Positions 15,173 through 19,247 of a DNA stretch of 64,000 nucleotides are shown here, one piece after another. Below the pieces are notes generated by a model. It saw nothing but the letters and a program-made list of their open reading frames with translations, ran no database searches and had not been told where the DNA came from. The first letter of the stretch is position 1. Each line of letters opens with the position of its first letter. Where the stretch lies: IMG/VR virus record IMGVR_UViG_3300012314_000001. One strand, given 5' to 3'. A program made the translations under genes and the position numbers. Source of the DNA: a virus.

Positions 15173-17794
15173 TTAGATTACGTCTGCCTCTTGCGACTGA
15201 CGTGCGATCTTGTCACCGAGTGCTCGCACAGTTTCGCGCCACTTCGTGTAGTAAGCGTCGTAGATTTCATTGTCTACACGGTCGCGGCCAAAGACCATAG
15301 CGGCGATTTGCTTCCAGCCAGCATCCCAGCTTTCTACCTGATACCGAGGGGAGATGGCGGCGTGGGTGGCGCGCTTGGTGAAGCTGTCCTGAATGATCTC
15401 CCAGGCCATGTCGAGTACCGCTGCTGCCTCGGAGCTAAGCTCGCTGCGGTGGTCTTCGATCCACATGTGGACGAACCGCTCGTCCTCGCCAGTGAGGTCG
15501 CCTTCGATGGTGCGGTTTCGATGCTTTTGGGCGAGATCCAACATCGCTATCGTCGAGTATGGGAATAGCTCGTTGATCACTCGGTAAGTCTTGCCCTTGT
15601 ACTCGTAGTCGCGCAGGGAGGTCTGGTTGCTTTGGCGGTCGAACAAGCTGTAGATCACACAGTCGGCAATGAACTCCGGGGTAAGCAGTGACTCGGGCGG
15701 GCGTGTAAAGATGTCCTTGTCACGAACCCACAGCAGCTTCTTTGTCGCAATATCCTCCTGCACGGCGCGACGAATAGAGAACGTCACCGCGGCGCGAATG
15801 AAGTTGTCTCGGGTGATGTCTCGACCGTGGGCACTGGCAAACCCCATGGTGTATATGCCTACGTACTTATCCGAGAATTGGACATTATTTCCATTATTGT
15901 GGGCATACCCGATAGCGCCGTCGCAAGGAACACACGGCGGGTTCTTAGAGGTAGGGGATTCAAGGCCGTTCTTGGTAAGAATAGGGTTAGGGTCTTTGTA
16001 CTTGGGGAGTGCGATGTCAGCAAACCAGTCGCTAATGGTTTCACCCTTTGAAACACTGCGACCTCGCCAATTAGCGACCTTGTTGATGTCGAGGTCACTG
16101 TCGGACTTGAGTACTGTGTAGTCGAACTCGCGTTGGTTTGAGCCGCCTACTTCAAAGTGGCTAAAAATAATTCCCCACATGGAGCTGGTGCCAGAAAATT
16201 CACCGGCGTTCATCATAAAGCCGTCTTTGAACGAGAACTCGGAAGTCAGTTCGTCCGTGAACTTCCCGAAGTTCGGGCTGGTCAGAAATCCCTTGTTGAA
16301 GAAGAAGAAGTGGAAGTCAGAGGTGTAGCCAAAAATCTTGGCCAACTCTTTAGTTCGCCAGATGAACTGCGTATAAAGCTCGCTCTTAGCGTGGCCCATA
16401 TCCCGCATCAAATCAGTCACAGCTGTAGCCGATACGCCGGGTTTCTGCTTCTTTCCATCGTGGCTCGTCGCCTGCCCATAAGGAGGATTAGCGAAGAAGA
16501 CGATAGGTCGGTTCGCAGCGAGTGCTTCCACCAAACCCTGTGGCATTTTTAGTTTCCCAGCGCGGGCTAGTTCCAGTGCCTTGTCCGCGGTCATGCTGTC
16601 CTCGTGCAGCTGCATGTCGTCGTTGAGGAAGTCGTACTGATACTTGGTTGCTTCCGGGTTGTAGTCGGAGGCAATGTCTAGCTCTTCCTGGAACAGGGTG
16701 GAGCAGTACAGCTCCTTGAATCGGTAGTCGCGGGTCAAATTTAGGGTTCCGCAGGCCGGATCAACGACCACGTACTCCTGCTTCCAGTCCCCGCCCAGTG
16801 CGTCCTCGATGTACTCGTGGGCCTTATCCACCCAGCGTGGCGGTGTCCAAAAATCACCAGTAAAACGTCGGTCAGTTTCTTCAATTAGAGTATCAGCCAC
16901 CTCAGTCAGCGACTTCAACTCCACCAACGTATAGTCACCCACTACATACTGCGACCAGAATTGCTCAAAACGATACGTATCCAAGGTCAGGTGCTTGTCG
17001 CCTACAACAAGCGTATTCGGCTTCTTGGGGTGAGCATAAATGTCACTGTTGCCACGGAGAATGTCAATAAAGAGAGAGATCTCGTCTTTGTTTTTCAGTC
17101 CTGTGGCGTCAGTGCCGAGTACTTCCATTTTGAAGCGAGTAAATACATGATCCATGGACTCTTTGTTGATAGGTACACGCAGTGGTTTGGTGCGCTGCCC
17201 CATGGCGTCGACGGCCCATAGGAACATGTTGGGGTCGAAGCCTGCTTGGATGTCGTGGACGTAGACGTGGTGAAGGTTGGAGTCTTGGATGAGGTCTGCA
17301 AGGAGTGTGGCGTCTTGATGCATGGTGGATGCGGAGTAATTGTGCCACGGGTAGGTGTCGTTGGTGGTGTATTTGTCGAGTTTGTTGGCGGGCATGGCGA
17401 AGATTTCGTCGGTGTCGCAGATGACGACGACGGAGGGTGTGCGTGCTCCGGTGGTGGGGAGGTTGCGGAGGTACCAGCAGACTTGGGCGTAGACTGTGGC
17501 GCGGTCTTTTTTGTTTGCGGAGAGGTTGAGGTCACGTTTTGCTTCGACGAGGAGTGCGTAGGGTGTGGTGGTGTCGGTGATTTCGATGTAGCCGTCGGTG
17601 TTGTTGCGGTAGTCGTGGGTGATGGTGGCGTTGGGGTGGATTTTTTTGAGTCCGGTGGTCAGGAGGGTGTTGACGGCGCTTTCGACGGCTTTTTCTACGT
17701 CGCCGGTGTGGTGGGCGTGGGCGAGGGTTTCGATGAAGTGGTCGGTTTGGGTTTGGGTGAGGATTTGGTGGTGTGTGGGGGCGTAGGTGGGCAT
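15173..17794 (-). CDS. MmeI-like type IIL (single-polypeptide) restriction-modification enzyme, N6-adenine methyltransferase with N-terminal PD-ExK nuclease domain
   Basis: N-terminal D..E-A-K (DGYIEIT...ALLVEAKRD, then QVCWY...VVICDTDEIF), laid out like the MmeI nuclease domain. Methyltransferase motif I VVVDPACGT and motif IV FFANPPYG. 873 aa. Confidence 0.65.
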   Translation of the reverse strand: MPTYAPTHHQILTQTQTDHFIETLAHAHHTGDVEKAVESAVNTLLTTGLKKIHPNATITHDYRNNTDGYIEITDTTTPYALLVEAKRDLNLSANKKDRATVYAQVCWYLRNLPTTGARTPSVVVICDTDEIFAMPANKLDKYTTNDTYPWHNYSASTMHQDATLLADLIQDSNLHHVYVHDIQAGFDPNMFLWAVDAMGQRTKPLRVPINKESMDHVFTRFKMEVLGTDATGLKNKDEISLFIDILRGNSDIYAHPKKPNTLVVGDKHLTLDTYRFEQFWSQYVVGDYTLVELKSLTEVADTLIEETDRRFTGDFWTPPRWVDKAHEYIEDALGGDWKQEYVVVDPACGTLNLTRDYRFKELYCSTLFQEELDIASDYNPEATKYQYDFLNDDMQLHEDSMTADKALELARAGKLKMPQGLVEALAANRPIVFFANPPYGQATSHDGKKQKPGVSATAVTDLMRDMGHAKSELYTQFIWRTKELAKIFGYTSDFHFFFFNKGFLTSPNFGKFTDELTSEFSFKDGFMMNAGEFSGTSSMWGIIFSHFEVGGSNQREFDYTVLKSDSDLDINKVANWRGRSVSKGETISDWFADIALPKYKDPNPILTKNGLESPTSKNPPCVPCDGAIGYAHNNGNNVQFSDKYVGIYTMGFASAHGRDITRDNFIRAAVTFSIRRAVQEDIATKKLLWVRDKDIFTRPPESLLTPEFIADCVIYSLFDRQSNQTSLRDYEYKGKTYRVINELFPYSTIAMLDLAQKHRNRTIEGDLTGEDERFVHMWIEDHRSELSSEAAAVLDMAWEIIQDSFTKRATHAAISPRYQVESWDAGWKQIAAMVFGRDRVDNEIYDAYYTKWRETVRALGDKIARQSQEADVI

Positions 17795-17888
17795 GGTTTT
17801 CTTTCTTTTTGGGGGTTGTTTCTGGGTTTAGTGTAGCATGGTTTTTGATATGTAGAAAAATATACGCGCAAAGTTTTTAGGGAATAAA

Positions 17889-19247
17889 ATGCTCGAAAAG
17901 TTTATCAACAAACTCACCACACCCACCTATCCTGCCAACAAACCCATGTTTTACCCCGGCTACATCAAACGCACAGACGGCCTCGATGTAGACAACATTC
18001 TTACCCAACTTAACGCTAACTACGCCACCAACCCTGACCACATCCATGGCACTTTCCACCGGCTTGCCTCCATCAGTGATCTCGAACCCATACTCTACAA
18101 TCACTGCACCAACAACCCCACCTCCATAGGAAACTGGCTCCCACCCCTGCTCAAAGCACACCGCGGGCTTAACAACCCTGCCCTCCATATCCCAGCAACA
18201 CGCACCATCCGCCTTGATCACGAGCTTGCCCAGTACCTGCGCGTTGAATTCGCAGACACCAACACACTAAGCCAACGCATCCTTGACACCTACCTCTACA
18301 ACGAACTTGGCCTCACCCACCCCGACTACTTCATCAAAACCGGAACCTTCTCCGGCAAATTCCAATTCGCCAACGCCCACTGCACAGAACCTGATGAAAT
18401 CGGACAATACTTCCACGTCATTAACAATTTTGCCATGTCTGTTGGTGCCGGAGAAACCATTGATCTTGCCATACGCGACTTTATTCCTGATACCCGCCAA
18501 CCTGCACCCGCAATCTACAACGGCATGCCACTGCGCTGCGAATACCGACTCTTCATCGACTTTAGTGACAACCCAGAAGCACACAACCACACCGAACCCA
18601 CCCGGCGCGCGGCGTATGCGCACAAGTTCGCTAACCCGCAGGACACTACCGGCACCTGCCCCGCCCGCATTATGGGGATCACACACTACTGGCACCGTAG
18701 AGTCATGCGGCAGCACTTTGCTATGCTCAATAATCCCGAATTCGCCGGATACAGCGGCATTAACCCCCAGGATGCTGCCACCTACCACGCGTGCGAAACA
18801 GAGCTTGATACCCAATTCGACCAACATCTAGACACTGTGCGCGCCGGGGTGGAGGAGTTGTTACCTGGAATGTATGCGCAGGGTTTTCGTGGTCAGTGGA
18901 GTGTGGACGTTATGGTGGATGCTACTGCCACGGGGAAGGTTGTGTTGTATCTGATTGATATGGCGCTGATGTGCGAGTCTGCGTTGTCTGATGAGCTTGA
19001 TACTGTTGACGAGCTACGTTATGTGCCGGTGGAGGAGATTCGCGCCGCGGCGACACGTCGGATTTTGTGGTATGCCCCGGCTCCGGATTTTGTGCCGGGT
19101 AGTGTTGTCGATGGGCATGGTGTTGCGCACGAGTTTACCCAGGGCAGTGCTGAAAAATCGTTGCGGTGGGGCGTTGAGAAAGGCCTTTTGTCTACAGACG
19201 GGTCGTCGGTGCCGTTTTTGGAGACGTTGCCCAGGTCTGTGGAGTAG
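17889..19247 (+). CDS. hypothetical protein (452 aa), possibly ATP-grasp-like
   Basis: Long ORF divergent from the RM gene. Weak ATP-grasp-like segments (FIKTGTFSGKF; WSVDVMVDATATGKVVLYLIDMA). The function call is tentative. Confidence 0.3.
   Translation: MLEKFINKLTTPTYPANKPMFYPGYIKRTDGLDVDNILTQLNANYATNPDHIHGTFHRLASISDLEPILYNHCTNNPTSIGNWLPPLLKAHRGLNNPALHIPATRTIRLDHELAQYLRVEFADTNTLSQRILDTYLYNELGLTHPDYFIKTGTFSGKFQFANAHCTEPDEIGQYFHVINNFAMSVGAGETIDLAIRDFIPDTRQPAPAIYNGMPLRCEYRLFIDFSDNPEAHNHTEPTRRAAYAHKFANPQDTTGTCPARIMGITHYWHRRVMRQHFAMLNNPEFAGYSGINPQDAATYHACETELDTQFDQHLDTVRAGVEELLPGMYAQGFRGQWSVDVMVDATATGKVVLYLIDMALMCESALSDELDTVDELRYVPVEEIRAAATRRILWYAPAPDFVPGSVVDGHGVAHEFTQGSAEKSLRWGVEKGLLSTDGSSVPFLETLPRSVE

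Follow-up and report, generated by a model that had tools for sequence, protein, structure and literature searches.

The window analyzed here is a stretch of 64,000 nucleotides (nt) from the IMG/VR virus record IMGVR_UViG_3300012314_000001. On its minus strand lies a gene for an 873-residue protein that joins a predicted nuclease to an N6-adenine methyltransferase. This protein is probably a self-contained, single-chain enzyme of the restriction-modification (RM) type, resembling type IIG and having the type IIG/IIC architecture, and its large sequence family has gone without annotation. The two catalytic centers are complete and conserved, the protein folds like DNA adenine methyltransferases of the RM type, and the gene is solitary, as expected of a single-chain RM enzyme. 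We infer that the protein cleaves DNA, that it is sequence specific, and what its biological role may be. An earlier, sequence-only reading had taken it for an MmeI-type enzyme in a possible module with a divergent gene for a 452-residue ATP-grasp-like protein. The two open reading frames (ORFs) are where that reading put them, divergent and 94 bp apart (Table 1), and all the motifs it quoted (D..EAK, QVCWY, VVICDTDEIF, DPACGT, and NPPYG) are present. Its two larger proposals, MmeI membership and the module, fared less well, as described below.

Domain organization and conservation

The AlphaFold2 model of the 873-residue protein has a mean predicted local distance difference test (pLDDT) score of 78.5 and divides into five parts. 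The first, residues 10 to 153, is predicted from conserved motifs and modeled secondary structure to be a RecB-type PD-(D/E)xK nuclease. The catalytic residues D67, E84-x-K86, and the RecB-type Q104xxxY108 (nt 17471-17596) fall in the strings TDGY...LLVEAKRD (D67, E84, and K86) and QVCWY (Q104 to Y108), with VVICDTDEIF as a further motif string; the D-to-E spacing is 16 residues. This part of the model (pLDDT 77-92) has the order alpha-alpha-beta-beta-beta-alpha-beta-beta, with a core of alpha-beta-beta-beta-alpha-beta, in which D67 opens the second strand, E84-x-K86 closes the third, and Q104xxxY108 sits on the next helix. We take this arrangement of D, ExK, and QxxxY to be the RecB/HsdR-type signature of PD-(D/E)xK nucleases. 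In Pfam the entire protein gave a sub-threshold match to DUF7149 alone, over the same residues. The connector that follows is mostly helical, and MmeI/DrdV-type enzymes have a helical spacer at the matching position.

The motifs of the methyltransferase run in the order X, I, II, III, IV (NPPY), V on a Rossmann fold, as in the DNA N6-adenine methyltransferases of the HsdM/TaqI clade. Downstream, identity to the query among close relatives falls to 0.48-0.60 in a beta-rich region, compared with 0.75-0.86 in the methyltransferase core. The variability and position of this region suggest that it may be the target-recognition domain (TRD). The idea of a sharply hypervariable TRD was dropped, since among close relatives residues 561-660 are only moderately more variable than the nuclease domain. 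A C-terminal helical bundle, with conserved residues R808, W823, D824, and Q829, completes the chain. A single polypeptide therefore holds a predicted nuclease, a gamma-class N6-adenine methyltransferase, and a downstream candidate recognition region, which is the type IIG/IIC architecture.

Alignment of relatives shows that the D-E-K and NPPY residues are kept rather than lost. In 34 relatives with 51-95% identity, D67, E84, K86, Q104, Y108, D127, E130, D345, G349, and N436 to G440 are all invariant. When the comparison is widened to 56 diverse relatives, down to 25% identity, D67, G349, and N436 to P438 remain invariant, and E84, K86, Q104, Y108, D345, and Y439 are each at least 90% conserved. 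Because this conservation extends across both sets, the nuclease and methyltransferase motifs are under selection and are no chance strings.

Inteins point the same way for the S-adenosylmethionine (SAM)-binding loop. Homologues of 1221-1381 residues carry a class-1 LAGLIDADG intein (PF14528) inserted in motif I exactly between A347 and C348 (DPA/C...SGN/CGT), with Cys1, a terminal Asn, and a +1 Cys. Insertion at the identical site is also found in relatives of only 27-34% identity; the members concerned, close and very distant ones together, are P0018, P0024, P0055, and P0105, as well as P0157 and P0187. Inteins home to indispensable conserved sites, and the insertion thus speaks for a working SAM-binding loop, besides being a notable trait of the family in itself. 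In the window the site corresponds to about nt 16751-16753 (codon C348), and the gene there is free of an intein.

Table 1. Features of the 873-residue protein gene and its divergent neighbor
Feature	Residues	Window position (nt)	Strand	Basis or remark
Gene for the nuclease-methyltransferase fusion	1-873	15173..17794	minus	Stop codon included; ORF list and translation
N-terminal PD-(D/E)xK nuclease (predicted)	10-153	17336..17767	minus	Conservation, AlphaFold2, sub-threshold Pfam DUF7149
Mostly helical connector	155-300	16895..17332	minus	AlphaFold2, pLDDT 55-80
Gamma-class N6-adenine DNA methyltransferase, Rossmann	301-560	16115..16894	minus	Motifs, model
Motif X, GDFWTP	313-318			
Motif I, DPACGT	345-350	16745-16762	minus	
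Motif III, YDFL	387-390			
Motif IV, NPPYG	436-440	16475-16489	minus	
Motif V, LYTQFIWR	473-480			
Beta-rich, least conserved region; candidate TRD	561-760	15515..16114	minus	
C-terminal helical bundle	761-873	15176..15514	minus	AlphaFold2 helices 761-869, pLDDT 85-97
Divergent intergenic spacer, 94 bp		17795..17888		Sequence
ATP-grasp-fold protein (phrog_12834)	1-452	17889..19247	plus	Adjoins the enzyme gene; not a conserved partner

Affinity to restriction-modification enzymes

Searches of NCBIfam and PHROGs gave no match to the 873-residue protein, and PADLOC gave a weak match to mad2 alone. No MmeI, Eco57I, or type IIG model from Pfam, NCBIfam, PHROG, or PADLOC rose above threshold for the query and 55 diverse relatives. 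In particular, the Pfam models MmeI_N, MmeI_hel, MmeI_Mtase, MmeI_TRD, and MmeI_C found neither the query (E<=0.1) nor any of the 56 members (E<=0.01). When the members were scanned singly with Pfam, two of the 56 had a sub-threshold match to Eco57I and one a match to N6_Mtase; PADLOC recognized 11 with its generic MTase_II model, nine with mad2, and none with its type IIG model.

A single-sequence phmmer search of the PDB returned nothing for either the 873- or the 452-residue protein. A profile of the family, searched against PDB sequences, matched DrdV (7lo5) and HsdM (3ufb) at E ~3e-3 over methyltransferase motifs, DrdV over motifs IV-V. With Foldseek, DrdV was the top match (E 3.5e-9), followed by BpuSI, M.TaqI, M.BseCI, HsdM, CamA, MmeI, and BrxX/PglX; the best structural neighbors also include LlaBIII and BsaXI. 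Type I HsdM, MmeI, DrdV, LlaBIII, M.TaqI, and PglX are equally near in these fold searches. Since identity to MmeI and DrdV is 10-14%, and HsdM, LlaBIII, and M.TaqI score alike, the likeness is to the whole gamma-class N6-adenine RM methyltransferase clade, with no specific affinity to MmeI. The fold and profile results therefore place the protein among the gamma-class N6-adenine DNA methyltransferases of the RM clade, with a predicted nuclease fused in cis, in type IIG/IIC architecture.

Individual members of the clade differ from the window enzyme in what accompanies the methyltransferase. HsdM, M.TaqI, M.BseCI, and CamA are without a fused nuclease, whereas the window enzyme has its predicted nuclease in cis; moreover, HsdM requires HsdS and HsdR as partners, and the window family has no conserved partner. 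Compared with the type ISP enzyme LlaBIII, the window enzyme has no helicase/translocase module. Type IIG enzymes of the BpuSI/Eco57I type share its general plan, but the Eco57I model stays below threshold for the window family.

Another parallel is with MmeI and DrdV (type IIL/IIG; PDB 5HR4 and 7LO5), in which a PD-ExK nuclease, marked by a conserved D...ExK, likewise stands at the N-terminus. The sequence-only reading had gone further and assigned the protein to the MmeI type. Of that proposal the fusion stands, as both sets of motifs are conserved, and the family membership is not supported. A true MmeI-family type IIL enzyme, methylating one strand only and cutting at a distance of about 20/18 nt from its asymmetric site, is improbable given the absence of MmeI matches in all 56 members, the lack of any type IIG/IIL match in NCBIfam or PADLOC, the low identity to MmeI and DrdV, and the equal scores of HsdM, LlaBIII, and M.TaqI. 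The window family also differs from MmeI and DrdV in its RecB-type QxxxY and its D-to-E spacing, and in being found mostly on large phage contigs.

A widespread family, its surroundings, and rival explanations

A word-indexed search yielded 743 homologues; almost all have 870-880 residues and align end to end, and none has a name. An exhaustive search raised this to 1191 cluster representatives at E<=1e-3, 465 of them at E<=1e-30. Literature searches on DUF7149, on type IIG enzymes in jumbo phages, and on methyltransferase inteins turned up no description of the family. A member was confirmed on 182 IMG/VR contigs, many of them large phage contigs of 100-670 kb. Among plasmids, the carriers include megaplasmids of Ligilactobacillus salivarius, one being pMP118 of strain UCC118 with a homologue of 30% identity, as well as plasmids of 9-16 kb from Lactobacillus, Acinetobacter, and Fluviibacter, and 59 species-representative genomes carry the family, among them about 10 Saccharibacteria, Staphylococcus schweitzeri, Clostridium spp., Lactobacillaceae, and Selenomonadaceae. 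The family represents a known kind of architecture with a new sequence, and it is widespread and unannotated.

Some relatives match only residues ~290-840 and have no nuclease (plasmid hits H22-H28, from ~349.6-kb plasmids of Bacillus thuringiensis, and P0201, P0215, and P0220). Some of these may be orphan methyltransferase derivatives, and others may be truncated contigs.

The gene stands alone, without an obligatory partner, as in type IIG/IIC systems. Flanking ORFs within 5-6 kb were clustered for 92 and then 151 loci; none of the resulting families is present at more than 11 of the 151, and such recurrence as there is reflects lineage synteny, so that some other conserved partner gene was rejected as well. 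Likewise, the 59 genome loci have no recurring flanking family. In bacterial chromosomes the gene lies between housekeeping genes or beside reverse-transcriptase or SbcC-like genes.

The adjacent 452-residue protein had been called ATP-grasp-like, and structure modeling bears this out. It matches phrog_12834 (E 1.7e-54), and its AlphaFold2 model is confident (pLDDT 89.2, predicted template modeling score 0.90). Against the PDB, Foldseek returned 22 matches at E<=1e-3, all ATP-grasp enzymes and most with probability 0.94-1.00; most of the remaining top 50 matches are ATP-grasp enzymes too. The PDB matches include PurK, biotin carboxylase, Ddl, tubulin tyrosine ligase (TTL), and Cdc123. Sequence models are faint in this family (ATP-grasp_3 in 1 of 47 members, R2K_3 in 1 of 47), and no Pfam model reaches threshold. 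The protein thus has its fold in common with R2K/Cdc123/TTL-like ligases but falls below every Pfam threshold, and its gene has no linkage to that of the RM-like enzyme. R2K ATP-grasp ligases occur sporadically in jumbo phages (PMC7824862).

That the two genes form a defense or anti-defense module was suggested by their adjacency and divergence around a common 94-bp control region, and the arrangement is indeed retained beside a 95%-identical homologue (L091). It goes no further. No ATP-grasp gene of this family lies within 10 kb of the homologues with 77% (L089/L090), 73% (L088), 67% (L001-3), and 51% (L004) identity, of any of the 80 IMG/VR loci, or of the plasmid loci. It is missing from the 87 loci tested by tblastn, and also near about 145 more distant loci. 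Moreover, homologues of the ATP-grasp protein occur in SPbeta-like Staphylococcus phages, in Corynebacterium glutamicum, and in other taxa, and the SPbeta-like record examined has no copy of the enzyme nearby. The module was rejected, being not conserved across relatives, and we regard it as very improbable; by this comparison of relatives, the neighbor is a phage gene independent of the enzyme and beside it by chance, and the unusual partnership is incidental. Divergent sigma-70 promoters between the two genes were likewise dropped, as the 94-bp spacer has no match to the sigma-70 consensus, which may not be the host's.

A different explanation is raised by the position of the gene in some phage lineages. 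The 873-residue protein could act in phage DNA metabolism and be no sequence-specific restriction enzyme, combining a self-protective methyltransferase with a nuclease for recombination, replication, or host-DNA scavenging; or it could be an RNA methyltransferase. In a large-phage lineage (L033, L034, L039-L041, L044, L051, L052, and L071) the gene has a fixed slot, with an SbcC/gp46-like ATPase gene directly upstream and a sigma-factor-like gene downstream, and in L004 it lies among genes for ribonucleotide reductase, NAD-ligase, and topoisomerase IV. These replication and recombination neighborhoods are more like those of a core phage function than of accessory defense, and they weigh against a restriction enzyme. 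So do four other observations: curated RM models (Pfam, NCBIfam, and PADLOC) fail to recognize the family; its members are labeled "hypothetical protein" throughout NCBI, and no characterized one was found; in variability the putative TRD exceeds the rest of the protein only moderately; and the nuclease is predicted from its motifs, its modeled strands and helices, and a sub-threshold DUF7149 match. However, it is the DNA methyltransferases of RM systems that match best, the GxFxTP motif of that clade is present, and the variable C-terminal region fits sequence recognition. In addition, homologues on the 9-16 kb plasmids and on Saccharibacteria chromosomes are solitary accessory genes, with no phage replication role there. 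On balance a role in phage DNA metabolism seems unlikely.

For a single-chain type IIG-like enzyme, which we prefer, the central methyltransferase and the variable beta-rich region would together bind a specific DNA sequence. With SAM, the NPPY site would methylate adenine N6 in the element's own DNA, and in host DNA while the element is resident; unmethylated DNA would be cut by the N-terminal nuclease, held on the helical connector. The carrier element could benefit through exclusion of competing phages and plasmids or through degradation of unmodified host DNA. Jumbo phages offer a precedent in fusions of the restriction endonuclease (REase) fold to DNA-modifying domains: Mom-REase fusions were proposed to protect phage DNA and to attack the DNA of hosts or rivals (Iyer et al. 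2021, PMC7824862). As in those proteins, a phage-borne REase fold would be fused to a DNA adenine-modifying enzyme; the window enzyme differs in modifying through a SAM-dependent N6-adenine methyltransferase, whereas Mom-REase uses the Mom acyltransferase.

A bolder proposal, which we consider rather unlikely, is that the family is an unrecognized and widespread class of single-chain RM enzymes with its main reservoir in large and jumbo phages. Such enzymes would be used offensively, the phage's own DNA being methylated and that of the host or rival phages destroyed; recognition and cleavage might be unlike those of type IIG/IIL enzymes, and the intein in the SAM loop might give conditional control. 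If the family is active, annotation by Pfam, NCBIfam, and PADLOC misses more than 1000 sequence clusters of single-chain nuclease-methyltransferases, many on large phages and plasmids. A characterized member would add a new scaffold of programmable-specificity RM enzymes and reveal how large phages turn restriction on their hosts or competitors.

Near the 73%-identical relative L088, a different gene for a 400-residue protein (2173-3375) lies 6.6 kb from the enzyme gene and has faint matches to the ATP-grasp models R2K_2 and R2K_3; tblastn detected no homology between it and the window 452-residue protein. In L001, a complete-looking type I-E CRISPR-Cas set (Cas3, Cse1, Cse2, Cas7, and Cas5; 16697-22622) lies ~4 kb from the 67%-identical homologue. 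The contigs concerned are 96-221 kb long and look like large mobile elements related to one another.

In the window, three tandem paralogous acidic ORFs (67, 67, and 58 residues; isoelectric point ~4; 14434-15086, minus strand) lie directly downstream of the 873-residue protein gene and have the N-terminus MxRYxFRxPI... in common. Their acidity prompted the idea that they may be DNA mimics. As conserved accessory genes they were rejected, recurring only in the 95%-identical L091.

The element carrying the gene

The window contains four tRNA genes and genes for a family A DNA polymerase, RecE/YqaJ-like exonucleases, and FtsK/SpoIIIE-like, endolysin-like, LytR, NlpC/P60, EspG-like, TnpB, and Fic proteins. 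This gene content marks it as part of a large mobile element, in agreement with the phage- or plasmid-like context first described, and close homologues of the enzyme lie on contigs of 60-220 kb. No capsid, terminase, or other virion gene was identified in the 64 kb. The element is probably actinobacterial, and either a phage or a large plasmid. Neither megablast (13000-21000) nor tblastn (with the enzyme) found anything among GenBank phages, and the element therefore has no close sequenced phage relative.

Three further loci in the window deserve mention. At 60116-63149, a gene for an FtsK/SpoIIIE-like ATPase (672 residues) is followed immediately by one for an EcoRI-like adenine methyltransferase (342 residues, Pfam E 2e-93) without an evident cognate endonuclease; GAATTC is not avoided in the window (20 sites observed, 15 expected). 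At 4291-9606, three paralogous ORFs in tandem (564, 568, and 592 residues) all match one segment of a tape-measure PHROG weakly. Finally, a TnpB/IS605 OrfB-type gene (39012-40139, minus strand), with Cas12f1-like TNB, OrfB_IS605, and helix-turn-helix matches, adjoins the family A DNA polymerase gene (36474-38444).

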